Source of the DNA: an uncultured Candidatus Altimarinota bacterium
GTDB taxonomy: Bacteria > Patescibacteriota > Gracilibacteria > BD1-5 > UBA6164
DNA: 64,000 nucleotides
Assembly (NCBI GenBank): GCA_963979005.1
Contig: CAXBVF010000001.1
Location: 177 to 64,176, forward strand
Direction of reading: 5' to 3'
In this document: positions 3,130-57,660 of the stretch, piece after piece
Layout of the letters: the number at the start of each line of letters is the position of its first letter
How positions within the stretch are numbered: the stretch's first letter is position 1
Notes under the pieces: model-generated
Databases searched by the model: none
What the model was told of the DNA's origin: nothing
Seen by the model: the letters and a program-made list of their open reading frames with translations, nothing else
Translations under genes and position numbers: made by a program

Positions 3130-5079
3130 ATGAAAGATTTTTTAGATGAACTAGACAAAGAACTAGGGACTGATGTAAATAATTTACAAGCTCCAAAAGA
3201 GGATAAAAGAAAAGAGAATGTAGTTGAAAAAAGAAAAATAACAGTTGTAAAAAAACAAGATATCAAAAAACCAACCAAAGATAACTCTCAAAAAAGACAA
3301 TGATATAATAAAAATTCTCATAATAATGAGGTGAGAGGAAAATTTGCTTCAAAATTTCCAGAAACTAAGTTTTATTTACCATCATTAAGAGAAAAATATA
3401 CTAGGTTTATGCCTGTTGGTTGAAATAACGAAACTGGTTCAAAAAATATGTGAATGATACAATACTGAGATGATATAGTATTGATTGATTGTTGAATACA
3501 ATTTGCAGATAGTAAGTTACCATGAGTAAGTTATTTAGTACCAGATGTATCATTTTTAACAAAATACAAAGATAAGATTAAATGATTAGTATTAACTCAC
3601 TGACATTTAGACCATATAGGTACATTAAAACATGTATTACCGGCACTTGGTATGCCAACTCTATACTGAACTAAATTAACTCTATGATTAGCAAAAAAAT
3701 GACTAGAAGAAGCTTGATTAATAGCTGATACTAGATTTGTAGAAGTAGATGCTGGAAGTGATAAAAAAATAGATATTTGACCTTTTAAATTCGAATTTTT
3801 TAGAGTAAATCACTCAATTCCAGATTGTGCATGATTATATATAGAATCTCCAGGTGGAGCTAAATTTATGCATACTTGAGATTTTAAAATTGATCATACT
3901 CCTGCTATTGATGAACCTGCAGATTTAGATAGGATAGAAAATATGTGAAAAAGAGGTATTACTCTACTTTTCTCTGATTCTACATGAGCTCCTAGAAAAG
4001 GATTTTCTAAATCAGAAAAAGATGTGTGAGAAGCTCTTGATGATATAGTAAAAAATCATACAAAAGGTAGACTTATAATTGCTGCATTTTCTTCATGGAT
4101 TTCTAGAGTACAACAACTTGTTGATAGTTGTGAAAAATATGATAAAACAATATTTTTGAGCGGTAGAAGTATGATAGAGAATGTTAACATAGCAAAAGAA
4201 CTATGATACCTAAAAATAAAACAAGGAGTTGTTAAAAAAATGACTCCAAAAAATACTCAATGAGTATTACCACACAAACAAGTTATTATTACTACATGAA
4301 GTCAATGAGAACAGTTTTCTGCATTAGTTAGAATGGCTGAAGGGAAACATAATTCTGTTGAAATTGTACATGGGGATACTGTTATTTTTTCTTCAAGTGT
4401 TGTTCCATGAAATGAAAGATCAGTTGTTTGAATTATAAACAAACTTATAAAACTTTGAGCAAATGTACTTACTAAAGATGATGGAGAATTCCATACTTGA
4501 GGACATGCTTTTCAAGAAGAACAAAAAATAATGCTTCAATTATCAAATCCTAAATATTTTATGCCTGTATATGGTGATTTATATTTTAGAACAATACATA
4601 AAAATACAGCTGTATCTACATGATTTAAATCTGATAATGTACTACTTTTAGATAACTGAAATATAGTCGACTTTGCACCAAATGGTACTGTATTTAAGTC
4701 AAAAATTAAGGCTCCTATTCAAGAAATAGTTGTTGATGGACGTGGTATGTGAATTTTAAATTCTCATGTAATGCAAGCAAGAGAAAAAATGATGGATTCA
4801 TGAGTTTTGGTTGTTTCATATAGAGTAGATAAAAAAACAAAAGCTATCATGTGACATATTAGACTTGAAACTAGAGGTTTGGTGTATTTAGACGAAGTTA
4901 GATTTATTCATAGAATGATTATTAAAAAAGCCCGTGATGTCTATGAAAATACAGTAAAAGATGTTCCAGATATGGAAGAAAAAGACTTATTAAAAATTGT
5001 AAGAACAGATTTAGAAAAATTCTTACTTCATAAATTAGATAGGGAACCAATGATTATACCAATGCTTACAGAAGTATAG
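3130..5079 (+). CDS. rnj: Ribonuclease J
   Basis: 649 aa with TGA=Gly. It contains the metallo-beta-lactamase motif LTHGHLDHIG, then a beta-CASP region and a C-terminal domain (FHTGGHAFQEE, MPVYGD). The frame matches the track fragment 4879-5079. Confidence 0.9.
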
Positions 5080-5104
5080 TATTATAATAAAATATTTGAA
5101 CATA

Positions 5105-5146
5105 AAAAAGAATAGGAATTAATTAATTTTAAGAACTATTCTTTTT
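5105..5146 (+). terminator. Hairpin plus T-run after rnj
   Basis: aaaaagaatag (5105-5115) pairs with ctattcttttt (5136-5146). The loop is long. Confidence 0.45.
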
Positions 5147-5159
5147 ATTATATTAACTC

Positions 5160-5187
5160 TTGACAAATACTTTATTTAATTTATAAT
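5160..5187 (+). promoter_or_regulatory. Near-consensus sigma70-type promoter for the 5231 ORF
   Basis: TTGACA (5160-5165), 16-nt spacer, TATAAT (5182-5187). AGGAG at 5217-5221 lies 9 nt before the ATG at 5231. Confidence 0.5.
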
Positions 5188-5230
5188 AACATTGTCTTTT
5201 TTTTAAACAATCTTACAGGAGAAAAAAATA

Positions 5231-6325
5231 ATGATTAGACAATTTGCAATAGCGGTAACTCTTCTTGGCTTACTTGTAGGCTGTGGAACAGATACTGAGT
5301 TTGTTGAGAAATCTCCAGAAAGCACTAGCTTCAAAATTAAAGCTATGGCTAATAATGACTTAACTTTTACTGGAGGGGCATTAGAATTTACAACAGAACA
5401 AGGGGTTCGCCATTTCGATGCTGATACTTACCTAAGGCCGCTGACGGAAACTGAAGTGGAGGAGGGAGTTGTAAATGTATATACCCCATATGGCTACGAT
5501 TATGTAGTACTATGGGTATATGGATATGTTAATGATGGGTCATCATGGGGTGGAAGTTATACATTTTCGACTCCTCAGAAAATTCTTTATAATGAAGGTT
5601 CTGAGAATATCATAAATGTATATCCTACATATATTGATACATATGAAACATTAGCAGTAACAGATTCATATCCTGATGGTTGTACCGTCTGGACGCATGA
5701 AGATACCTTGATCAGAGGCAAAGAAAATAATGTGAAGTATTTTGCCGTATGTAATGAAGATAAAAGTGAAACTTTGAAGCGTGGTCTGAATACAGTCAAT
5801 TTGCCTGGCACTCCGTCAGAAGATGGAGAAGTCGCTTTTGATGATGTGTCGGATGAATGTGATGAGGTTGAGCTTTTACTGGGTTGGTGTTCAGATTATG
5901 TCTTTTCCGATATAAATCTATATGATGTAAATGGTCGGAAGATAGAAAAATTATCTAAAACATTTTCTTTGTTAGATAAAGGCTCGCTGATTATTGAAGA
6001 TGATTTTTTATTTTCAGATGCTGAGAGAGTTAATCTCTTGACGCTGTGTATTAATACACCTGACGAAGAAATTGATTCTATCAAGTTTCAAAGCTTAGCC
6101 GTTCCGACTGATTATGATACTGATGTGTATAGGACTGTTAATACTTTTTATGATGATTTATCTGGAAATACTTGCCCTTATCTTGATAGTGGGATATTTA
6201 TTCCAAAAAATAATCAATTAATGGTTTCGTATAGTGTAGTAGGTTCTTCAGCATTTAATAATGTTGAGGCTACAATCGTTGAGGGATTTGGTAATACTAG
6301 CGGTTTTACAATCGTTGCTGAATAA
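5231..6325 (+). CDS. Lipoprotein of unknown function, free of TGA codons and compositionally atypical
   Basis: The 364-aa ORF is intact even under the standard code. The lipobox LLVGC follows a signal peptide. All 27 Gly are GGN. In-frame GCG, CGC, CCG, CTG, ACG and TCG codons are rare in neighbouring genes. A strong SD and a consensus promoter lie upstream. Confidence 0.75.
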   Translation: MIRQFAIAVTLLGLLVGCGTDTEFVEKSPESTSFKIKAMANNDLTFTGGALEFTTEQGVRHFDADTYLRPLTETEVEEGVVNVYTPYGYDYVVLWVYGYVNDGSSWGGSYTFSTPQKILYNEGSENIINVYPTYIDTYETLAVTDSYPDGCTVWTHEDTLIRGKENNVKYFAVCNEDKSETLKRGLNTVNLPGTPSEDGEVAFDDVSDECDEVELLLGWCSDYVFSDINLYDVNGRKIEKLSKTFSLLDKGSLIIEDDFLFSDAERVNLLTLCINTPDEEIDSIKFQSLAVPTDYDTDVYRTVNTFYDDLSGNTCPYLDSGIFIPKNNQLMVSYSVVGSSAFNNVEATIVEGFGNTSGFTIVAE

Positions 6326-6342
6326 ATGAAATGAGGAATACA

Positions 6343-6376
6343 AGAGGATGCAATAAAGCATCCTCTTAATTTTTTG
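6343..6376 (+). terminator. Intrinsic terminator of the 5231 ORF
   Basis: agaggatgc, loop aataaa, gcatcctct, followed by taatttttt. Confidence 0.6.
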
Positions 6377-6458
6377 TCTAAAAAATATTATATATTGACT
6401 TTATTATAATTTTATATATAACTTAGATAATATTTTTACTATCATAATAAAACAAAAA

Positions 6459-7994
6459 ATGTCAATAAAGAGTAATTTACTTTCTGCTTGATTATGAGCA
6501 TCAATGGCTCTGTCTAATGTTTCTGCAGATACTTCGTTTTCAAATAATACAATAGATTTAATAAATAATACATGTGATTGAATATGTATTACTTTGAATA
6601 ATACTAGTGAAGAAAATAAAATATCAGAAATAATTGTACAGGATAGATTTAATTCTCCTATTTTACAATTAGTTGATGATGAAAATGGTTTAATATGAGT
6701 ATTAGCACTTACTTGATCTATAGATGCTTTTGAAACACTAGCATCAGCAGATGATTGAGATGATGATTTAAATGACGATACTGTATATATAGTTAGTACA
6801 ACCAACCTTCTTACTAATAATATAGTTATGTTAGAGGCTGGTGATGGAAATAATTATGCAATTGATGTTGTAGATTATTTTTATTGACAAGATTTTAAAC
6901 AAATTTTAGCTGCTCATCAAAGATTCTCTAATTCTACTTGATTTGGAAATAATATTTTATCTTGGGATTGAGAAAATCTTATGTTGAATATTGAAGGAAA
7001 TAATTTTAGTAAAAAAGATATAGAAACATTAAGAATAGTATCAATAGGAGATATTGACTCAAAAAATGTATCTTTACAAAATATTGATTTACAAAAAATA
7101 GTATCAAAAGGGATAAGTGCTAATATAAATTTATGAAATTTAGATAATTCATTTATAGTATCAGCTTGAAATTGATTTAATTCTTTGGATTTAGAGTTTT
7201 GAGATAGCTTATCAGAAAGAGATTGATATAATTTTGAATACGCATCAGCTAAATTTAGAAACTTATTTAATGCAAGTGATAATATGTCTCAGTTTTCATT
7301 TACTTGAAAATTCACAAGCCTAAAAAGTATAAGCATGAGTGATTCAGCTGTTGATAAAGAATATACAGGTCTTAGTTGAGAAGTTTGATATTGAATAAAA
7401 AGTGAATTATCGGAAAATTTTACTTGATGAATTTGAGCTTCACTTCAATTTGCTAGACTATTTTGAGAGTGAGATGAAGAATTTGTAGATAATCAATATT
7501 GAAATGCTGCAACTACCTTCAAACTAGAACATAAAAATTGACTTAGCTGATATGCTACTTTTTGAATAGAGTGATGACCTGACAATGTTGATTTAAATCC
7601 TTATTATTGATTAAATGAAACAGGAGATTTGGTCCAAATATCGAATGATGATTTTGATAATGAAATAGCTATTTATAATACTAGTGAATTTTGATTATCA
7701 TATAAATTTATTAATAAATCTGGATTCTCATGATCTTTAGTTATAAATACATGAAATAATGCATGGGATACTTATAATACTGTTGGATGATCAGTACAAA
7801 AATGAAAATTTTATTTAGATTTTAATGTATTGGATATAAAAGAAGATTTAAATAAAATAGCTAACACAAGAGAAATTTGATTAACAACATCATATTTTTG
7901 GAAAAATGCAAAACTAGCTATAGCCTTAAATAAGGATAAAAGCGACTATCATGAAGACTTAAATATTACCTGAAATGTATATATAAATTTTTAA
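6459..7994 (+). CDS. Hypothetical secreted or surface protein, rich in Gly, Asn and aromatic residues
   Basis: 511 aa, open only with TGA=Gly, and most of its Gly codons are TGA. It has a weak N-terminal signal-like segment. I recognise no family. Confidence 0.55.
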
Positions 7995-8066
7995 TTAAAA
8001 AAACTTTTGCATTTTTTTTTATATATATAGTATGTATATACTTTATATAAATTAAACTTAATTATC

Positions 8067-11000
8067 ATGCAAAAATTTAATATGTCTAAATGAGTTAAAT
8101 TGTTAATAACCACATTATTAATAGTAGTTTGAGTTAATAATGTTAATGCGACTTACATACAAAATCCTGATGGAATTTGATGAAATGAACTAAGATTATG
8201 GTTAGAATCTACTTCGTGAGTTACTGGTAATACAGATTGAGCTAAAATTAGTCTTTGGACTGATAAGTCATGAAATGGTTTTGATGTATCTCAAGACCAA
8301 TTTATTAGTCAACCTACATATAGTGATAATACTACTTCAAATATAAATTTTTTACCAGTTGTTTCTTTTCCTACTAGTATTTTTACATACCTAGATTTTC
8401 ATACAGGTTTTGATGTAAATTGGAACAATGATTATACATTAACTGCTGTTCTTAGAAATAATACATTTTCATGATGAACATTTGTTGAAACAATAACTTA
8501 TGATGAGGCATTAAACTTAACTAAAACTTATTATAATTGAGTTAATCAATCATATGACCCAACAGCAACTTGATCAATAAACATTGGTGATTTTACGTCA
8601 TCATGAACTTTTGCTGTATGATGATATGGTTATGAATTTGACCTAGCTGAAGTACTTGTGTATAATAAGGAATTACCAATAGAGGATATTCAAGTATTAG
8701 AATCATATTTAGCACTTAAATATTGAGTTGCTTTTGAATGAAATGAATCTCTATCTCATGATTATTATGATTCAAATAAAAATATAATTTGAGTTCTACA
8801 TAGTAATACGGGTTTATGAACTACATCTAATTATTATTCATATTGATATTATGATACTAATTGAACTTATAGATACTCTACTCGCTATTTTTCTTTTAAT
8901 ACTACATGAATTGTTAGAGATGACGCTTTATGATTAAATGTAACAAAATCAAAAAATCAAAACTATGGTTACTGACTTGTAACAATAGAGAAAACTAATG
9001 CTTTAAATAATATGGAGCATTTACTTATATCTGATACTTGGTCATCAGTGGATTGGGATTTATTTGACGCACCTGTTTGATATAGTCTAGTCTCTAGAAG
9101 ATGGTCTACTCAATGAACAAGTGATAACATAAAGCTTACTTTTGATGTGGATAATTTAGCTTTAAATATTCCAGCTCCAGTTGATGGTTCTAGTAATTAT
9201 TATTTTATATATGATGCAGATTTAGATTGATTACTAGCTGATGAGTCACCACTTCCAATGTCTAATGACTGATGAGGAAATTATAGTATATCATGATTAA
9301 GTTTATCAGATAGACAAGATTTTACTATTGCTAGTTTATGAGAGTATAATTTTGCACCTAGAGTTATAAAAATAGATGATAGTAAATATTCTGATAGAAT
9401 AGAACTTAATACTCTTACATGATCTGTTATTTGAAATTTATCTGTAGTAGATGAAAATTCTTTGGATACACATACTTATGCTTTGGTGGCTTGAACGGGT
9501 TCTGAAGATAATGCCTTTTTCTCTATTAGTTGAAATAGCTTAAGTGTAAATTTTTCTGCAGATTATGCTAATCCATTGGATGCTAACCTAAATAATGTAT
9601 ATAATATATTAGTTGAAGTTACTGATAATTGAGGTTTAACTTATCAAGATACTTTCTATATATATGTAAATCAAGGATATGCTCCTACTGACCTAACTAT
9701 TGATGGTTTTGATGCTTTACATATAGATGAAAATAATTCATTATATTCTAATATTTGAACTCTTATTGCTACAGACCCTGATACTTCAGATACTCATTAT
9801 TTCAACTTAGTAACTTGAACATGAGATGAAGATAATAATTTATTTTATGTAGATTATTGACCATGGTTAGAAACACAATTTGTAGCTGACTATGAAGTTC
9901 CTCAAGATGCTAACGGTGATAATACTTATAATATACGTGTTGAAACAACTGATGCAGAATGAAATAAATTTTCAAAAGCACTTACTATTGTTGTAGATAA
10001 TGTTAACGAAACTAATGTTGCCCCTACAAATATATTAATTAATGGTTGAAGTTCTCCAACTATTGATGAGAATGAAGTAAATTGATTTGTATTTTGAAAC
10101 TTATCAACTACAGATGCAAATACCTGAGATACACATAGTTATACATTAACATGATGAATAGGTTCTGATGATAATTGAGCAGTTACAATTTCTTGAACAT
10201 CAGTATCACTAAATACTAGTCATGATTATGAAAATCCTGCAGATGCTGGTGCTGATAATATGTATGCTTTTAGAGTAAGTACTACAGATGCATTATGATT
10301 GACTTTTGAAAAAGCTTTTATTCTTAGTGTAAATGATGTTGCTGAGAGTAGTTCTCCTTATAATTTACAATTAAATTGATGAATTAGTGTTACAATTGAT
10401 GAAAATACTCCATCTTGAACTAATATTTGAGCATTTACGAGTGATGATTTAAATGTTTGAGATGTACATACTTATTCTATAGTTGCTTGAACGTGAGATG
10501 AAGATAATGGATTATTCATTTTATCTTGAAATAATCTTCAACTTGCTTTTACTCCTGATTTTGAAATTGAGGCTGATGCCAATGTTGATAATACTTATAA
10601 TATTAGAGTTAGAGCAACTGATAGTGATTCACTAACTACAGAAGCGGCATTTACTGTTGTTATTAATGATGTTAATGAGGCTATTAATAATGCTCCAACT
10701 GATATAAAAATCAATAATTTAGATACAATAAGTATTGATGAGAATATAACTAGTTGAACTAATATTTGAACTGTTTCAGTAATTGATCCTGATATTTGAA
10801 ACACACATACTTATACTTTAGTTAATTGAATTTGAGATGAAGATAATTCTAATTTTACTTTAGTAGCTACTACTCTTTCTTTAGCAATAACTCCTGATTT
10901 TGAAAATCCTGTAGATGCTAATAATAATAATGTTCATAGAATTAGACTTAGAGTTACTGATAATTTTTGATTAAGTTTTGAAAAAACTTTCAATATAACT

Positions 11001-12482
11001 GTTAATGATATATTTGAAAATACTGCTCCAAGTGATTTAAAAATAGCTGGTTTAGATGCAATAGATATAGCTGAAAATACTTCTACATGAGCTAATGTAT
11101 GAGCACTTTCGAATACTGATATAGATAATTCAGATACTCATACTTATTCCTTAGCAGTTTGAGCTTGAGATACTGATAATGGTCTTTTTAGAACTCATCT
11201 TGGTTCATTATTTATGGATTTTAAACCAGATTTTGAAAATCCAGTTGATACAGGTACAAACAACCAATATAATATTAGATTAAAAGTTACTGATAATAGT
11301 TGAGCAATTTTTGAAAAAGCATTTATTATATCTATTACTGATGTTTTTGAAAATACAGTGCCTACAGATACTAAAATAAATTCATTAAATGCAATTTCTG
11401 TAAATGAAAACATTACTTCATGATCTAATATATGAACATTATCAGTAGTTGATGGTGATATTTGAGACACATATACTTATTCATTATTAGCTTGAACTTG
11501 AGATGAAGATAATACACGTTTTACTATATCTTGAAATAGTCTTAGACTTGCATTTACACCAAACTTTGAATCTCCTATAGATTCTAATGCTAATAATATA
11601 TATAATATAAGAATTAGAGTTACTGATAGTGGATGACTTACATTTGATAAAGCATTTACAGTTACTGTATTAGATGTAAATGAAACAGTTGTTACTAGTA
11701 GTTGAGGTGGATGATCATCATGATGAGGTGGATGAGGTTGAGCAAAAGTATGTAGACAAGTTGAATTAGTTTGTAGAACAGCTCGTGCTACTTCTACTAG
11801 ATATAGAGTATATAGAGTAGAGTGAGCTTCTTGTTTAGCTGATTCTCTTTGAGATACTTGTGATCCTAAAACTTTTTGAACTGCAGATGCAGTTAAAGTT
11901 TCAAAAATAGCATTATATGTTTCTAAAAGTGAAAAAATTAATGAAATTGCAGTTAAGGTTGATGATATGATTAAAAAAGCTAAAAAACAAGCTGACGATG
12001 ATATTATTATTATGAGAAATGATGTAGTAAAAATAATCGAAGAGTATTTAGAAATATTAAAAACTAAAAATAAAGCAAAAATTGCTAGTGCTAAAGAAAA
12101 TCTAATAACAGAATTTAAAAAGTTTTTAGTTGAAGTTAAAAAGAAAAAAATTGTAATTGTAAAAGCTCCTAAACCTGTTGAAAAAACGGAAGACGAAGGA
12201 GTTGTAAAAGAAGAATGAGAGGAAGATGAAAGCTGAAAATATGTATCTCCTAATGATAGAATTAATGGTGTATGAGATAAACTAGATACACTTATTAAAG
12301 CAAAGAAGAAAGCTAATACTTGAACTATATTAGAAATGAGAAACTGACTGATGAAAGATTTAGAAGCTTATATGGTTTTATTACAAAGTAAAATCTCTGC
12401 TAGAACTAAAGCTATTCAGATAAAAATTTCTAAAAGAAATCTTATAAAAAAGATAAGAGCTTTTATGGCAGAAATTAAATAA
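8067..12482 (+). CDS. Giant surface protein: signal peptide, LamG-like lectin domain, 7 cadherin-like repeats, poly-Gly linker, coiled-coil tail
   Basis: 1471 aa with TGA=Gly. The N-terminal LRLWLESTSGVTGNTDGAKISLWTDKSGNGFDVSQ ... AEVLVYNKELPIEDIQVLESYLALKYGV is a typical LamG/ConA-like module. The repeats carry cadherin hallmarks (IDEN..., D.D..DTH.Y.L, VNDVNE..AP). Confidence 0.8.
9354..11687 (+). repeat. Seven tandem in-frame cadherin-like repeats (period 327-339 nt)
   Basis: Repeat units begin near 9354, 9681, 10020, 10353, 10692, 11025 and 11358. Each starts at (A/S)P(T/S)D/N and ends at V.DVNE/F. Confidence 0.8.
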
Positions 12483-12489
12483 TAAGAAA

Positions 12490-12519
12490 AACTCTTTAGA
12501 ATTTCTAAAGAGTTTTTTT
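12490..12519 (+). terminator. Intrinsic terminator after the cadherin-repeat gene
   Basis: aactctttag, loop aattt, ctaaagagtt, followed by a T-run. Confidence 0.65.
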
Positions 12520-12635
12520 AGTGTATTATTAGTAATATTTAATCAGTAAGTATTTAAATTAGATATTTCTTTACAAAATCAAAAAACTGCTTAAAATGTA
12601 TATCTAAATATTTTAAATTATTAATTTAAAAAAAT

Positions 12636-13667
12636 ATGAAAAAAACAATAAATATCTTGTTAGTAATGCTAATCACTTTTCTTTTGTCGTCATGTGTAAC
12701 TTCGCAAACAGATGTTAATCAAGCTAAACATGAGTTATGAATTATTGAATTAGAAGAAGATACTATCGATTCTTGAACTAATATTGATATGGAAATTGAA
12801 AAAGCTAAAGATGAAATAATTCAAGTCGATGAAATGTGAGAAGAAAAAAAAGAGGAAATTAAAAAATTTGAAATTATATCATTAACTGATGATCAATTTT
12901 TAGAATTTGATGATCTAACTAATGAAAATTTTCTTGATAGTGAGGTTGAAATTAAATGAAAAACTCTAGCTATTGTTGATAAAATAATAGTGACTTTTGT
13001 TAATGAAACGTCTGATTTTCCAGTTGATACTTATACTTTAAAACAATTTAGTTCATGAGACGAATCTTTTTTATATAGAGCTTTCTCTAGATATGAAACG
13101 TTAGATTATGGTAAAAATGTGTATGTATTTGAGGCACATTCATGAGTTAATGTAACTAAATTACAAATTATATTAAATGTAATTAAAGAAGAAGAAAAAG
13201 AAATTTCTGAAAAAGTAGAGGAAATATTTGAAGATGTTTCTTTAGATACGCTACCAGTGTCTTCTACTTTTTGAAATCCTACCTATTTATGAAGTGGGAA
13301 AGTATCGTATTCTGATCTAAAATGATTAGAAATTAAAAGAGATGTAAATTCAGATTTAACTTGTGATAATTTAACAAGTATTTTAGCTGATAAGTTAAAT
13401 GGGTGGTTTTTTTGGAACACATGTCGTCCTATAGAAGCTGATGAGGGTATAAGTTTTTTTGTTATTAGATTAGATGGAGAAGATTATATATACGAAAAAC
13501 ATTATTATCTTTCTTATGAATGAATATATTGAGTACAAGAGTTAGAAACATGAACTTGAGTAACGGCTGATAATATATGAGAAAAAAATAGTGAGTTAAA
13601 GGAATGAAATAAAGATTTTTCTATTTTAAATGTGAGTGATGATTTATTTATACAAATTTTAAAATAA
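12636..13667 (+). CDS. Hypothetical lipoprotein
   Basis: 343 aa with TGA=Gly. The signal peptide ends in the lipobox FLLSSC. I recognise no family. Confidence 0.55.
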
Positions 13668-25838: not shown

Positions 25839-25851
25839 ATCATCTTTTTTT
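25823..25851. terminator. Bidirectional terminator between convergent genes
   Basis: agatgat, loop taa, atcatct, flanked by an A-run and a T-run. It overlaps the 3' end of tig. Confidence 0.55.
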
Positions 25852-27166
25852 ATTTAGTAGTTTTTTTCTCTATTTCAAAGAAGCTATCAATTAATTTTCT
25901 ATAAGCCATTCTTTGTCTTAGTTCTTCGTAATATTTATTACCAGGAACATATAACTCTTTCAATCTAGCTAGTACATCTTTTGAACCATAATTAGCAAGA
26001 ATATTTTCTACTTCTACTTTTAATTCTTTATCTGTTACTTCAGTTTTTTCTGTTTCATTTAGTTTATGTAAAATTAATTCTCCTTGTAATCTTTTTAAGG
26101 CTACAGTTTTTACATTTTTTTCTTTATATGTTTCTTCATCCATTTTTAAGCTTTCTAGATAGTCTGATATTTTCATTCCATCTTTTGCTATGTTTTCTTT
26201 TATTTCAGAGTAAACTTTTTCTATTTGGTTTTTTAATAAACCATTACCTATTTCCATTTTAGTTACTTTTAGAAGTTCATCTATTAGTTTAGTTTCTTCA
26301 TCTATTCTAGCATTTGATTCTTTAGTACCTGTTATTTCTTCTTTTATTAATTTTTTGAATCCATCTAAATCAAGTTTTTTACCTCTTAATTGCTCGATAA
26401 ACTCAGGAGTAAATTCTGGTTTAACTGCTTTTTCTAATTTTTTAATATTTACTTTAAAACTAGTTTTTTTACCAGCAAAATCAGCGTTATGATAATCTTT
26501 TGGAAAATCAATTGGTAATACTAATTCATCACCTACTTTTGCTCAAGCAATTTGTTCTTCAAAACCAGGAACTAATATATTTGTTCCAAGTACAAGAGGG
26601 TATTCGACCATAGAAGTATTTTCTAGAACGTCTCCATTTTCAGAACCTTCTGTATCAATAGTTACTCTATCTCACATTTTAGCTTTTGCAGTTTTGCTTG
26701 TTGTTTCTTCAAATTTTGTAAATTTTGTTTCTATTTGTTCTAATGCAGTTTTAACTTCAGCAGCACTTACTGTAATTTTTTGTTTTTTAAGTTTAATTTT
26801 TCTATATTTTGAATCTATTTCTATAGTAGGGAATACTTCAATATGAATTTTGAATTTAAGAGGAGATTCAGAAATTATTTCTTTTATTTCAGCTTGTGCA
26901 ACTGGCATTATTTTTTCTTTTCTAAGCGCTTCTCTATAAATACCATCGATTGCAAAATCAATAGACATTTTATTAATATATTCATCTCCATATTGTCTAA
27001 CTAAAATATTTTCAGGTATTTTAGCTCATTTTCTAAATCATTTTATATCAGCATTTTTTTCTAAGTGTTCTAGGGCCTGTTTTCTATATTTTGCTACATT
27101 TTTAGCTTCTTCTTCTACTACTAATTCTACAATTGAATCTGGAAGTAAATTTTTCTCTATTTTCAT
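25850..27166 (-). CDS. tig: Trigger factor
   Basis: 438 aa with TGA=Gly, joining track fragments 25850-26257 and 26672-26968. The N-terminal GFRKGAKIPENILVRQYG motif and an FKBP-like middle domain are present. Confidence 0.85.
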
Positions 27167-32683: not shown

Positions 32684-33052
32684 ATGGCAAGAATTTCTTG
32701 AGTAAATTTACCAAATGGTAAGCATGCAGAAATTGCATTAACTTATATATATGGTATTGGAAGAACTGCTGCTAATCTTATTTTAGCAAAAGTTAAAATT
32801 GAAAAAACAACAAAAATTGAAAAACTTTCTGAAGCTGATTTAGATAAAATCAGAGATGAAATAAAAGAAAATTATGTTGTTGAATGAGATCTTAGAAGAT
32901 TGGTTTCTGGTAATATTAAAAGATTACAAGAAATAAATTGTTATAGAGGTCAAAGACATAGAAAGAGATTACCTGTTAGAGGACAAAGCACTAAAACTAA
33001 TGCTAAGACTAGAAAAGGTAAATCTACAGCGGTAGCTGGTAAAAAGAAATAA
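32684..33052 (+). CDS. rpsM: Ribosomal protein S13
   Basis: [30 protein letters not shown]..., 122 aa. Confidence 0.9.
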
Positions 33053-33105
33053 TAAATATATCTTAAGGATATATTAATACTTTATAAAAATATTTACATT
33101 AAATT

Positions 33106-33498
33106 ATGGCTAAACCAACTGTAAAGAAAAGTAAAAAAACTAGACAAATAATTCCACATGGACAAGCTCATATTATGGCTTCGTTTAATAATACTATTGT
33201 TAGTATTACAGATGAAAAAGGTAATGTGTTAACTTGGTCTACTGGATGATCTGCTGGTTTTAAAGGTGCAAGAGAGTCTACTCCTTACGCTGCTCAAATT
33301 ACTGCTGAGCAAGCAATGGAAAAAGCTAAAACTCTACATTCTGTTGAAACTGTTGACGTTTACGTTAAAGGAATCGGTATTTGAAGAGAACAAGCTATTA
33401 GAGGGTTAATATCAACTGGTGTTGAGCTTAGAGCTATATATGATGTTACTCCAATTCCACACAATGGGTGTAGAAAAAAGAAAGTTAGAAAATTATAA
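33106..33498 (+). CDS. rpsK: Ribosomal protein S11
   Basis: [46 protein letters not shown]..., 130 aa. Confidence 0.9.
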
Positions 33499-33557
33499 TT
33501 CTTTCTTTAAATATATTAAAACAGATATTAACTTTAAAATTTTAAATTTAATTTAAC

Positions 33558-34181
33558 ATGAGGTACACTTGACCAAAGAAAAAACTTTGTAGAAGAGAAG
33601 GTGTTAATTTGTTTGGTACTGAAAAATATGATTTAAACAATTCTAAGAGAGCTCCTCTAAGATCTAGAAAATCGTCAGAATTCGGTACTCAATTAAGAAA
33701 AAAACAATTAGCAAAAAGAATGTTTTGATTATCTGAAAAACAATTCGTTTCTTATTTTAAGAAAGCACAAAAATCTACTGCTGAATGAACTACATGAGAA
33801 AAAATGTTAAAACTAATCGAATTAAGATTAGATAATGTAGTTTACAGAGCTAACTTCGCTAGAACTAGAATCCAATCTAGACAATTTGTAAGTCATGCTC
33901 ATTTCACAGTTAATTGAGTGAAAGTAGATGTTCCATCTATTTCAGTTAAAATTTGAGATGTTATCGCTTTGAGAGATAAACTAAAAGAAAGTCCTTTATA
34001 TAAATCTTTATTAGAAGAATTAGAAGAATTTTCAAAACAAAATAAAGGTAGCGTTTCTGGATGTAAATGGATAGAAGTAGATTCTAAAAAATTAACAATT
34101 ACTATAACTGCTCTACCTACTAAAGAAGATTTCGAACAAATAATTGATATCCAAAAAATAGTAGAGTTTTATTCTAAATAG
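33558..34181 (+). CDS. rpsD: Ribosomal protein S4
   Basis: [20 protein letters not shown]...[30 protein letters not shown], 207 aa. Confidence 0.9.
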
Positions 34182-34210
34182 TTTAATTATTTTTGTAATC
34201 AATTTAAAAT

Positions 34211-35191
34211 ATGCATATTATACATAATACAATTGGGGTACCTAAAATCATACAAAAGGACTTAGAAAATAACTCAGCTTCTTTTACAGTATGACCATTA
34301 CCTAAAGGTTATGGAGTAACGATTTGAAATTCTCTTAGAAGAACATTATTATCTTCTATACCTGGAACTAGAATAACTTGAATAAAAGTTGCATGAGTTA
34401 GTCATGAATATTCAACTCTTCCATGAGTTAAGGATAGTATTATTGATATTATACTTAATCTAAAAGGATTAGTTTTAAATAAAGCTGATACTGGAATTGA
34501 ATGGTTAAAACTTTCAAAAAAGAAAGCATGAAAAGTTACTGCAGCTGATATAAAAGCTCCTGCTGGTATAGAAATCTTAAATAAAGATTTATATATCACA
34601 GAAATTGATCAAGATTGATTAGAACTGAATATAGATATAAGAGTTGAAAAATGAGTTTGATACTTAACTATTGAAGAACTAAAGGATAAAGAGGAAGATG
34701 TTGAAGTATTACTTGTTGATGCAAACTTCTCTCCGGTTGTAAATGTTAAATATAACATTGAACAAGCAAGATTTTGAGAAATGACTAATTTAGATTCTCT
34801 TGAAATGGTAGTTACAACAAATGGAGCAATTTCTCCAGTTGATGCAATTAAATTTTCATGAGATATGCTAACTTCATATTTTTCTATATTTAACGAAGAT
34901 TCTTTACAAGTTGAATGACAATTCATTTCAAATGTAACCGAATTAATAAATAAAGAAAAAGAAGAGGTACAAGAAGAATTAGAAAAAGAAACTTATACTC
35001 CTATTGAAATTATGGGATTATCTCCTAGAACATTGAACGCGTTAATTAATTGAGATATACTTTCAATTGAAAAACTTACTAAATGTACTGAAACAAAACT
35101 TTCTTCTATCAAATGATTTGGTAAGAAAGCAATGACTGAGATAAGATCATCTCTTGCTGAAAGAGGATTAAAATTATTAGGGGATGATTAA
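34211..35191 (+). CDS. rpoA: DNA-directed RNA polymerase alpha subunit
   Basis: 326 aa. Contains [33 protein letters not shown] and the C-terminal domain IEIMGLSPRTLNALINGDILSIEKL. Confidence 0.9.
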
Positions 35192-35224
35192 GAATTCTAT
35201 TTATAACTATTACACTTATTAAAA

Positions 35225-35587
35225 ATGAGACATAGAGTTAGAAAAAATTTAAAGTTTAATAACAAAAGCTTCTCACATAGAGATCTTATGCAAAGAAACT
35301 TACTAACATCTTTTTTCATGCACAAATCAATTAAAACAACTGTAAAAAAAGCTAAATTAATAGTTCCTATGGTTGATAAATTAATTAATGTTGCTAATAC
35401 TAAAGATGAAATGAATGCAATTAGATATGTAATGAAATATCTATTTACAAAAGAAGCTTCACTTGAATTATTCAAGAATGTTGCTCCAAAATATAAAGGA
35501 AATAAAACCTCTGGTTTTACAAGAGCTACTGCCGTTAATCTAAGAGATTGAGACAATGCTAAAATTGTAAAATTAGAACTAGTTTAA
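35225..35587 (+). CDS. rplQ: Ribosomal protein L17
   Basis: [44 protein letters not shown]... The frame continues through one TGA to TAA 35585-35587. Confidence 0.9.
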
Positions 35588-35612
35588 TTTAATTACGTTT
35601 AATTTAATAGAC

Positions 35613-36041
35613 ATGAAAACTATTACTCCAACACAATTAAAAGGAGACGAAAGAAAATGGTATGTAATCGATGCTAAAGGTCAAACTTTAGGTAGATTAG
35701 CAACTCAACTTTCTGTTATTCTAAAAGGAAAAAACAAAGCATCGTTTGCTCCACATTTAGATAATGGTGATTACGTAGTTGTAACTAACTGTGATAAATT
35801 TAAAGTTACTTGAAAAAAAATGACTGATAAAATGTATTACAGACATACTGGTTACTTAGGTGGTCTTAAAGAAATATCTCTTGAAGATTTATTGGTTAAA
35901 AAACCTACTAAAGCATTAGAACTTGCTATTAGTGGAATGTTACCAAAAAATAAATTAAGAGCTGGAATGTTATCTAGATTGAAATTATTCACTTGAGATG
36001 ATCATTCATATGTTGCTCAAAAACCAGAACTTATAAAATAA
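35613..36041 (+). CDS. rplM: Ribosomal protein L13
   Basis: [43 protein letters not shown]..., 142 aa. Confidence 0.9.
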
Positions 36042-36050
36042 TAAACTGTT

Positions 36051-36443
36051 ATGGCAAATAAATACACTTATACTATTTGAAAAAGAAAAACTGCATCTGC
36101 TCAAGTAAAACTATTTGAGGGGAAAGGTGAGGATAAAGTTAATGGTAAAAAAATAACTGAATATATTACTAGATCAGATTTATTTGATACTATTTACTCT
36201 CCACTTAAACTTTGTAAAATAAAAGATAAATTTTATTTTGAAGTTGCAATTTCTGGTTCAGGAATCTCAGCTCAAGCTGAAGCTATTAGACATGGACTTG
36301 CTAGAAGCCTTGCTTCAAGTGATGAAGGGTTTAAAAAAGTTTTAAAAGCTGCTGGATTACTTACTAGAGATGCTAGAAAAGTGGAAAGAAAGAAACCTGG
36401 TAAACATAAAGCCAGAAAAGGAATGCAATGGTCAAAAAGATAA
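36051..36443 (+). CDS. rpsI: Ribosomal protein S9
   Basis: The C-terminus LLTRDARKVERKKPGKHKARKGMQWSKR is diagnostic. 130 aa. Confidence 0.9.
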
Positions 36444-36532
36444 TTTTTGACTTAAGTTATATTTTATATATAATCTTTGCGTTTTAAAAAATGAAATGAA
36501 AATTTCAATAATTTACTAACTATAATTGAAAA

Positions 36533-36949
36533 ATGCCTACTATTAATCAATTAATTAAAAGAAAGAGAAAAACTCCATCTACTAAGAGTAAATCTCCTGC
36601 ATTACAAATGACTAAAAATTCTATTAAGAAAACTACGTCTATAATGCCTGGAGGATGTCCTCAAAAAAGATGAGTTTGTGTTAAAGTAACTACTATGACA
36701 CCTAAAAAACCAAATTCTGCCTTAAGAAAAGTTGCAAGAGTTAGATTAACTAATGGAATGGAAGTTAATGCATATATTGGTGGTGAAGGTCATAACTTAC
36801 AAGAGCATTCTGTTGTTGCTATCAGAGGTGGTAGAGCAAAGGATTTACCATGAGTAAGATACCATGTTGTTAGATGAGTACTGGATTGTGAAGGTGTTCA
36901 AAACAGAAAACAAGGTAGATCATTATATGGTGCTAAAAAACCTAAATAG
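36533..36949 (+). CDS. rpsL: Ribosomal protein S12
   Basis: [12 protein letters not shown]...[31 protein letters not shown]... The invariant Gly of KRGVC is TGA at 36671-36673. Confidence 0.95.
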
Positions 36950-37039
36950 AAAATAAATCCATTTTAATTGGAAATTTTCGCGGAGTAAGCTCAACAATTG
37001 CTGAAAAAATCCGTATTTATTATTAATTGTTACAAAAAC

Positions 37040-37474
<435 letters not shown>

Positions 37475-50088: not shown

Positions 50089-50490
50089 GTGAAAGTATTA
50101 ATAGTTTTTATTAAAATCTGTATGTATTGTTCAGTTACGGCATTTTTTGTAACTAGTTCATATATATCAATAAAAATTTATGATTTGGTTCTAATAAAGT
50201 TACCATATTATGAAAGTTTGTGGGAAGGGGGTTTTAGGACTGTCGAGAGTGTAGAAAAAGTATCTACTGCACTTTACCTGACAATTCCAGAACTCTCTAA
50301 AGAGGTTGCAAAAATAAGTACTTCTATGAAAACCATAGAGCAATCAATGGTTCGAATGGATTATTCTATTGGAACGATTTCTTTTACAATTTCCAATCAA
50401 ATGGGACATATGAACAATCAAATGGGACAACTCAATGATAGTTTCCATCCTATGGGAATGATGAAAAAAATGATGTTTTGGTGAAAATAA
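50089..50490 (+). CDS. Small membrane-anchored protein, TGA-free except for a penultimate TGA, compositionally atypical
   Basis: The track ORF 50089-50484 has a GTG start (ATG 50122 is an alternative). Under table 25 it reads through TGA 50485-50487 to TAA 50488-50490. All internal Gly are GGN. It has an N-terminal hydrophobic segment and a GC-rich terminator downstream. Confidence 0.5.
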
Positions 50491-50520: not shown

Positions 50521-50550
50521 AAAAAAGGGACCTAAAAGGCCCCTTTTTTT
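50521..50550. terminator. GC-rich bidirectional terminator
   Basis: aaaaaa gggacc taaaa ggcccc ttttttt, with one mismatch in the stem. Confidence 0.6.
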
Positions 50551-55570: not shown

Positions 55571-55590
55571 AAAAAAGCCCCTTACGGGGC
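55571..55590 (-). terminator. GC-rich hairpin terminator of the antisense ORF
   Basis: On the minus strand: gcccc, loop gtaa, ggggc, followed by tttttt. The ORF's stop codon lies in the loop. Confidence 0.55.
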
Positions 55591-55857
55591 GCTTTCAGAT
55601 GAGTATTTCTTATTTAGTTTTTTCAAACCTTCGAGTATCGCTAATGCTATACAAGCGAAGGCTATGTATCTAAACAAATGATGTACATCCAATGATATTA
55701 TTTCCCATATCTTCCATTCAGGATTGGCCCAAAAGAAATGGACAAATATACCTTTAATTGCATTTTGACCTGTCAATAAGGCCAATAGTGGTATAAATGA
55801 TAAGGATACTATCACGAAATAAGTACCGAAACTTAAATACTTTGCATATTTATTCAC
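55582..55857 (-). CDS. Small multi-pass membrane protein, TGA-free, antisense between sufC and sufB
   Basis: 91 aa with a GTG start. AAGGAG lies 7 nt upstream. There are 2-3 hydrophobic helices. G+C is visibly higher than in the flanking sequence. The ORF is intact under the standard code. Confidence 0.6.
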   Translation of the reverse strand: MNKYAKYLSFGTYFVIVSLSFIPLLALLTGQNAIKGIFVHFFWANPEWKIWEIISLDVHHLFRYIAFACIALAILEGLKKLNKKYSSESAP

Positions 55858-57384: not shown

Positions 57385-57660
57385 TTACTCACTTTTATTT
57401 TCTACTTTCGTAAAATGGAGAAACTCTCCATCTATGAAAGCAACAGAAATAGTCATTTCTTTTCTTCCTTTAATAGGAACATCATGACCAAGTAATCCTA
57501 TTAAAAGTGAATTCTGTTGTTTTTTACAATCTATGTTACCTTGATTATATCCTTTAAGTCGTGCTTCATTTATAGCCTTATTCCTTGATATTCTGTCTAT
57601 AATAGCAGCTACTATAAATAGTAGTACTATTAAAATATATATGATAGTAAAATCTCTCAC
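57385..57660 (-). CDS. Small single-pass membrane protein, TGA-free, antisense between sufB and sufA
   Basis: The track ORF is 57385-57672. The likely start is GTG at 57660, with GGAGA 5 nt upstream. It has an N-terminal transmembrane helix (FTIIYILIVLLFIVAAII) and a C-terminal soluble part of about 65 aa. Confidence 0.55.
   Translation of the reverse strand: MRDFTIIYILIVLLFIVAAIIDRISRNKAINEARLKGYNQGNIDCKKQQNSLLIGLLGHDVPIKGRKEMTISVAFIDGEFLHFTKVENKSE

Follow-up and report, generated by a model that had tools for sequence, protein, structure and literature searches.

A TGA-free lipoprotein gene in a code-25 marine Gracilibacterium: a possible import from a standard-code source

How does a gene without a single glycine-encoding TGA come to stand in a bacterial genome that reads TGA as glycine? 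The question is raised by a 64,000-nucleotide stretch of DNA (the window; positions 177 to 64,176 of the forward strand of contig CAXBVF010000001.1, assembly GCA_963979005.1) from an uncultured Candidatus Altimarinota bacterium of the Gracilibacteria lineage. The gene, here named lipoA (5231..6325, + strand), encodes a prelipoprotein of 364 amino acids (aa), has no in-frame TGA, ends in TAA and uses atypical codons. An earlier note, made by a model from the letters alone, had described it as a self-contained lipoprotein cassette with foreign-looking expression signals and had taken it for a recent acquisition from a standard-code donor, for example a host or prey bacterium. With modest confidence, we favour the reading that lipoA is a functional, compositionally foreign gene taken from a standard-code source by a code-25 marine Gracilibacterium; the proposed date and donor are not upheld by the data presented below.

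The genetic code of the organism can be read from the window itself. When only TAA and TAG are treated as stops, open reading frames (ORFs) of 100 aa or more occupy 90.8% of the window, as compared with 4.9% under code 11. In the alignment of SufB with its E. coli counterpart, TGA stands opposite glycine at 9 conserved positions and in no case opposite tryptophan, which indicates code 25. The nearest relatives of RNase J, the product of the rnj gene upstream of lipoA, reach 77-78% identity and belong to metagenome-assembled genomes (MAGs) labelled Gracilibacteria, Peribacteria or Patescibacteria, and contigs with the same genes come from marine metagenomes, including a sample labelled HAWL17 (SAMN05224526) and the JGI series Ga02334xx. 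Our coverage of the species comprises the 64-kb window and about 21 kb of further DNA; the comparison set consists of 51 Gracilibacteria loci beside the window, designated below by L-numbers. In 66 native ORFs of the species TGA makes up 67% of the glycine codons, and in the ribosomal-protein block 31%. For the ribosomal-protein genes and trigger factor (32684-37474 and 25850-27166) the share is 9-31% versus 67% overall, which suggests that UGA-Gly decoding is disfavoured in highly expressed genes.

Against this background the composition of lipoA is exceptional. All of its 27 glycine codons are GGN, as the note had observed, while its neighbours are heavy in TGA: rnj contains 31 TGA and 23 GGN, and the downstream gene 37 TGA and 11 GGN. 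The probability of finding 0 TGA among 27 is 1e-13 at the native share of 0.67 and 4e-5 at the share of 0.31 seen in the ribosomal-protein block. This avoidance is frame-specific, since TGA is plentiful in the two other frames (8 and 35 occurrences). Because in-frame TGA is absent and the stop is TAA, lipoA reads identically in code 11 and code 25, and the claim of correct translation in both codes is thus confirmed. The GC content of the gene, 0.36 (z = +3.5), is the highest among the 55 ORFs examined, with a local peak of 0.44-0.47 around 5385-5520, and GC at third codon positions (GC3) is 0.24 compared with a native mean of 0.12 ± 0.03 (z = +4.4). GGC accounts for 6 of the 27 glycine codons, as opposed to 0.3% of glycine codons in native genes; CTG, which represents 0.8% of native leucine codons, is used five times; and the natively rare CGC, CGG, CCG, TCG, ACG and GCG are all present, in agreement with the rare codons and elevated GC reported in the note. 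The log-likelihood of the lipoA codons under native usage gives z = -7.6, and still z = -5.1 with glycine excluded, so that the gene lies outside the native range by codon usage as well as by GC3. Composition changes abruptly at the borders of the ORF.

The expression signals flanking lipoA are those described in the note, and its claim that they look foreign holds for two of the three. The promoter is the exception. It is a sigma-70-type TTGACA-N16-TATAAT element at 5160..5187 (+ strand) that matches the consensus in 12/12 positions, one of only two perfect matches in 64 kb, and it is of native type: the lipoA promoter (TTGACAAATACTTTATTTAATTTATAAT) is identical in 24/28 positions to the promoter (TTGACAAATACTATATTTATAGTATAAT) of L056:11255-13222, a native TGA-rich cadherin-repeat gene that lies beside a paralogue of lipoA described below. 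The idea that a consensus promoter by itself means foreign origin was rejected on these grounds. The two promoters (5160-5187 in the window and 11197-11224 in L056) have the common pattern TTGACAAATACT…TATAAT, and one promoter type may be common to surface-protein genes. The second signal is a Shine-Dalgarno (SD) site, AGGAG, at 5217..5221 (+ strand), 9 nt in front of the ATG. Of the 55 window ORFs examined, no other has an SD at the proper distance, and in a survey of 806 ORFs of at least 80 aa from the window and the 51 Gracilibacteria loci, AGGAG or GGAGG at about -5 to -20 occurred in three, all of them TGA-free genes of this species. The third signal is a short GC-rich intrinsic terminator at 6342..6375 (+ strand), AAGAGGATGC-loop-GCATCCTCTT followed by a T run, whose hairpin (6342-6367, inverted repeat I24) has 10 pairs, 5 of them G-C. 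Native terminators are long AT-rich stems, as illustrated by the hairpin terminator of rnj at 5105..5146 (+ strand; inverted repeat I4, arms 5105-5122 and 5129-5146). The intergenic region 5080-5230 has a GC content of 0.146 and is of native composition (GC 0.14-0.19) up to about 5205. Since the promoter matches a native one and the intergenic DNA is natively composed, the foreign-looking part is limited to the SD, the ORF and the terminator, set behind a native-type promoter. Homopolymer tracts were also seen here: both paralogues have a T8 tract just 3' of the -10 element (5197-5204 in the window, about 9966-9973 in L056), and lipoA has an A7 tract in the spacer from SD to ATG. Tract length does not vary across four assemblies.

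The paralogue, lipoB, is found at L056:10001-11074 and has 0 TGA and 22 GGN, a GC content of 0.32, AGGAG 8 nt before the ATG, a TTGACA-N16-TATATT promoter and a GC-rich hairpin. Its product is 43% identical to LipoA over the full length. We considered and rejected it as an orthologue from another species, because the two clusters share a locus-tag prefix (HOF65_06200 versus HOF65_07020) and the same JGI sample, with neighbouring accession numbers in three further series; lipoB therefore represents a paralogue at another locus of the same species. Both paralogues adjoin genes for cadherin-repeat surface proteins, that of lipoB being the TGA-rich lipoprotein gene mentioned above. Among 143 positions with the same degenerate amino acid, 74 codons are identical, compared with 74.2 expected if random. 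The split between lipoA and lipoB is therefore old, and both genes are functional, given that the protein is conserved despite saturated synonymous sites. The pair together contains 0 TGA in 49 glycine codons, which implies that there were two separate imports, that both copies arrived in a single import, or that the genes are long-time residents in which selection acts against TGA. A saturated paralogue in the same species that is also free of TGA gives no support to the recent acquisition proposed in the note.

Nor is lipoA the lone oddity that it first appeared to be: with lipoB and four others it makes up a group of at least six self-contained cassettes of like style in this species. The first of the four (50089..50490, + strand) encodes about 133 aa, has GC3 of 0.26 and z = -5.2 without glycine, and is followed by a GC-rich hairpin at about 50527-50543. 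It has no clear SD, its promoter match is at most 10/12, and it contains a single TGA two codons before TAA (…W-TGA-AAA-TAA, 50485-50490); this TGA would be the stop in code 11, whereas reading on in code 25 lengthens the protein by Gly-Lys. Two others, both on the - strand and both encoding 91-aa membrane proteins from GTG starts, stand antisense inside the suf gene cluster. The one at 55582..55857, inserted between sufC and sufB, has AGGAG, TTGACA-N16-TATTAT at 55918-55891, a GCCCCGTAAGGGGC terminator and z = -7.4; the one at 57385..57660, which follows sufB, has GGAG, a perfect TTGACA-N16-TATAAT at 57717-57690, no TGA and z = -2.8. The fourth, also in lipoA style, encodes 165 aa (L056:18765-19262, - strand). 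Codon usage is atypical in all four (z = -2.8 to -7.4 without glycine), and lipoB falls within the same range. GGAG or AGGAG is present in 5/6 cassettes and a TTGAC(A/T)-N16 promoter matching in at least 11/12 positions in 5/6; most have an SD, a TAA or TAG stop and a short GC-rich terminator, and in-frame TGA is absent except for the lone near-terminal one of 50089-50490. No relatives of the four further cassettes were detectable, and no comparable cassettes were found in about 835 kb from 50 other species, which represent the rnj neighbourhood only.

The product of lipoA begins with a signal peptide and lipobox (MIRQFAIAVTLLGLLVG before C18; 5231..5284, + strand), as read from the translation: a positively charged n-region and a hydrophobic h-region lead to the lipobox L-V-G-C18, in the manner of bacterial lipoprotein signals. 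Cys18 and the following GTDTE are invariant between the lipoA and lipoB products, which have a further four cysteines in common. Native neighbours also carry lipoboxes (LLSSC in the product of 12636-13667, ILAAC in L056 B655), and by this sequence evidence a lipoprotein pathway is suggested to exist in the species. The mature protein is acidic (pI 4.05) with a mass of 38.7 kDa, and BLASTP of LipoA against itself revealed no internal repeats. Searches of LipoA against Pfam, NCBIfam, PHROGs, PADLOC and PDB sequences gave no significant match (none below E = 0.079 in PHROGs), in line with the note's description of a lipoprotein of no known family. One metagenome scan matched only copies of lipoB, and phage collections (INPHARED by tblastn and five IMG/VR scans) were negative for LipoA, LipoB and the four other cassette proteins.

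To assess the genomic position of lipoA, the proteins of the window were compared by tblastn with 50 related loci. The syntenic order found in more than 40 related species is three pilin-like genes, a peptidase gene, rnj, a lipoprotein gene (the homologue of 12636-13667), pyrH and yidC, with a gap of only about 70-120 bp between rnj and the lipoprotein gene. Because rnj is directly followed by the 12636 homologue in these species, the region 5080..12635 (+ strand) represents an insertion relative to conserved Gracilibacteria synteny. The insertion comprises lipoA, a secreted 511-aa ORFan (a protein without detected relatives) and a 1471-aa cadherin-repeat protein with a match to Pfam Cadherin, and lipoA is thus the leftmost gene of an island of surface-protein genes that is specific to the species and lies downstream of rnj. 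Both other island genes are TGA-rich ORFans and, with 37 and 89 TGA respectively, are natively coded, so that lipoA is the only TGA-free gene in the insertion. A search with the 511-aa protein recovered nothing except its own gene, translated with Trp for TGA (93% identity), and reached no sister species; given that a natively coded protein is likewise without relatives, it is the coding style and not ORFan status that sets lipoA apart. No lipoA homologue was found within 10 kb of the syntenic site in more than 40 related species.

Several additional observations concern this site. In oral Gracilibacteria it carries extra lipoprotein genes that are TGA-rich and without SD (L027 12049-13587; L029 12043-13551 and 13658-14242; L035 10472-11908), and throughout the group this position seems to act as a hotspot of variable lipoprotein genes. 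The 511-aa ORFan (6459-7994 in the window) has a Sec signal peptide and ends in …NVYINF, similar to the C-terminal Phe motif of outer-membrane beta-barrels, which is unexpected for a bacterium of the candidate phyla radiation. An imperfect 16-nt direct repeat, 5077-5092 (TAGTATTATAATAAAA) and 6437-6452 (TACTATCATAATAAAA), brackets the cassette between the rnj stop and the start of the next gene, and could be a target duplication or a product of chance in DNA of 14% GC.

Import from a standard-code source accounts at once for the freedom from TGA, the SD, and the GC-rich codons and terminator, and it agrees with an insertion into a conserved gene order. Of the marks by which horizontal acquisition is recognized, foreign composition and codon usage are present, as is absence from the syntenic site in relatives. 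Nothing that the note had named as a refutation was encountered: there is no orthologue with TGA, and the codon measures fall beyond the native range. A number of results nevertheless weigh against this interpretation. Homologues from a donor lineage with phylogenetic incongruence were sought among 1.84 billion representative proteins, and the HMMER scan returned only two clusters, LipoA and its paralogue, both from this species; in all, no homologue from outside the species was found in about 15 billion proteins by a word-indexed search and the full HMMER scan. The host or prey donor suggested in the note consequently finds no support, and its inference of a standard-code donor is supported by composition and insertion and not by a donor homologue. 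No integrase, transposase, tRNA or clear target-site duplication was found at the insertion site. The cassette is not wholly foreign, given its native-like promoter, and the saturated TGA-free pair requires two acquisitions or the acquisition of both copies. With regard to function, AlphaFold2 on the 2-sequence alignment gave a confidence score (pLDDT) of 34.7, too low for any fold reading, and the weakest step of the proposal is our inference that LipoA is a surface-anchored protein acting with the adhesin island in cell-cell contact.

Two trivial explanations can be considered jointly, and we regard the chance that either is correct as very small. An assembly chimera, i.e. a standard-code fragment misjoined into the contig, could account for the abrupt shift of composition at the ORF borders, but the AT-rich flanks within the cassette are native-like, and the cassette with flanks of 151 nt and 133 nt (1379 nt) is base-identical in three other assemblies produced by different assemblers (a k141-named ENA contig, a SPAdes-style NODE contig and an NCBI MAG). 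The exact LipoA protein occurs in 126 blocks of the assembly collection, its gene copies differ by 0-2 nt across assemblies, and lipoA lies between rnj and the 511-aa gene in 24/24 contigs read for LipoA and in 24/24 read for the downstream gene. Since independent assemblies agree in the sequence of the cassette and of both junctions, lipoA is not a misassembly, and the chimera retains practically no probability. Hardly more credible is a native gene of the ordinary kind whose lack of TGA is due to chance, or merely to high expression. The low TGA shares of trigger factor and ribosomal-protein genes (0.09-0.31) speak for it, but even at the ribosomal-protein rate the complete absence of TGA is improbable, as calculated above; the codon usage without glycine is 5 standard deviations off the native mean, and the SD is the only properly spaced one in the window. 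Highly expressed native genes contain less TGA, yet their GC3 stays at about 0.1, GGC and CTG hardly occur in them, and an SD is absent. We therefore conclude that expression level or translational selection does not explain the lipoA signature, and rejected the reading of lipoA as a highly expressed native gene.

The remaining alternatives deserve more attention. According to one, which we consider unlikely but the most serious of them, lipoA and lipoB are a long-resident, lineage-specific family that was duplicated inside the Gracilibacterium, and purifying selection removed GGA-to-TGA changes and kept the SD; the reason for such selection would be a need for very high translation, or for translation while UGA decoding is impaired. 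The synonymous saturation of a pair without TGA, the restriction of homologues to this species and the native-like promoter of lipoA are all consistent with residence, as are the partial TGA avoidance of highly expressed native genes, which suggests a cost of UGA decoding, and the existence of code-11-compatible phages for which Gracilibacteria are the predicted hosts (Liu et al. 2023, mBio; PMC10746230). Selection on TGA, however, leaves unexplained the raised GC3 and the excess of GGC, CTG, CGC, CGG, TCG and CCG, features that are not seen in highly expressed native genes; an SD is missing from ribosomal-protein genes, and the rnj neighbourhoods of 50 other species contain no such cassettes. 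The same phages, which lack in-frame TGA and end their genes in TAA, TAG or backed-up TGA stops (PMC10746230), make it conceivable, though we attach rather little weight to it, that lipoA is the moron-like remnant of one of them, a surface lipoprotein gene with its own promoter and terminator serving, e.g., superinfection exclusion. The TGA-then-TAA ending of 50089-50490 is exactly such an arrangement, and the cassettes are self-contained ORFans for lipoproteins or small membrane proteins, like many morons; but they are scattered singly among housekeeping genes with no phage hallmark gene nearby, have no match in INPHARED, IMG/VR or PHROGs, and differ from the integrated prophages of these phyla, which are TGA-rich (PMC10746230). 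Finally, we regard it as improbable that the six cassettes are a code-neutral set kept TGA-free and SD-fitted by selection, so as to be translatable whatever the state of UGA decoding. One conceivable setting is attack by a code-11-compatible phage able to reinstate termination at UGA or to put tRNA-Gly(UCA) out of action; another is expression in a standard-code partner cell after DNA transfer. What speaks for this alternative is that the saturated paralogue pair has 0/49 TGA and that about 15 billion proteins yielded no donor. The interpretation that we favour remains import from a standard-code source.

In UGA-recoded bacteria such as Mycoplasma, an incoming standard-code gene without in-frame TGA stays translatable, which makes the recoded genome permeable in one direction. 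The import of a gene into a recoded genome is a known kind of event, of which lipoA would be a new example: it fits the TGA-free pattern, and differs in that UGA in the recipient means glycine, that there are six cassettes and that two anciently diverged paralogues are among them. Other known systems resemble it in part. The genes of code-11-compatible Gracilibacteria phages have the same absence of in-frame TGA and a non-TGA stop (TAA in lipoA), whereas the cassettes are single, chromosomal and placed among housekeeping genes, with no phage context or relative in phage collections, and lipoA neighbours rnj and surface-protein genes. Like prophage morons and small acquired islets, lipoA is a promoter-ORF-terminator unit for an envelope protein, with a composition unlike its flanks, that is absent from the site in relatives; unlike them, it lies outside any prophage, with no mobility gene or att site and with a native-like promoter. 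An integron gene cassette, by contrast, consists of a promoterless ORF and attC, while lipoA has a 12/12 promoter and a terminator with a 10-bp stem, and no attC-like imperfect palindrome was seen. The native lipoprotein genes 3' of rnj (12636-13667 in the window; L027 12049-13587; L029 12043-13551) have in common with lipoA the neighbourhood, signal peptide and lipobox, but they show no detected similarity to it, are TGA-rich (e.g. 31 TGA versus 11 GGN), have no SD and use native codons.

Some observations bear on the translation apparatus and on the annotation of this group. In the whole 64 kb (1-64000) no tRNA genes and no Rfam families were detected at the gathering threshold, and the 3' end of 16S rRNA, which carries the anti-SD, was sought in the window and the comparison loci and not found. 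Loss of the anti-SD has been suggested to be confined to some Parcubacteria (PMC9297842). In the NCBI MAG records L003 and L059 genes were called in code 11, and native genes are broken into pieces of 30-100 aa; because of this choice of code, the TGA-free cassettes are nearly the sole full-length deposited proteins of these MAGs. A syntenic relative labelled Peribacteria HK-STAS-PATE-10 (L009, CP060226.1, 12041-16672; locus GC 0.38) has several conserved genes without TGA and may use TGA rarely or not at all.

If the favoured interpretation is correct, the TTGACA-N16-TATAAT promoter would drive transcription of lipoA and the AGGAG site would recruit the ribosome to it. The prelipoprotein would be exported by Sec and then lipidated at Cys18, and an acidic (pI about 4), probably beta-rich, cysteine-containing mature protein of 38.7 kDa would be displayed on the cell surface, where it would probably work alongside the cadherin-repeat adhesins encoded next to it when the cell meets other cells.

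A stop-to-sense change of the genetic code is expected to block the export of genes and not their import, and in the natural code-25 genome described here several genes of foreign composition are readable in both codes and have an SD that residents lack. Two things are unusual about them: code-neutral cassettes with an SD occur as a whole class in a genome that is otherwise without SD, and an old paralogue pair has gained no TGA. These loci can be used for studying the passage of genes across a code boundary, the speed at which a recoded codon is gained (from GGA to TGA is a single synonymous step in code 25) and a possible cost of UGA decoding. Finally, LipoA together with the cadherin-repeat island represents a candidate surface factor of a marine episymbiont, uncultured and nearly clonal, that occurs in many independent metagenome assemblies.

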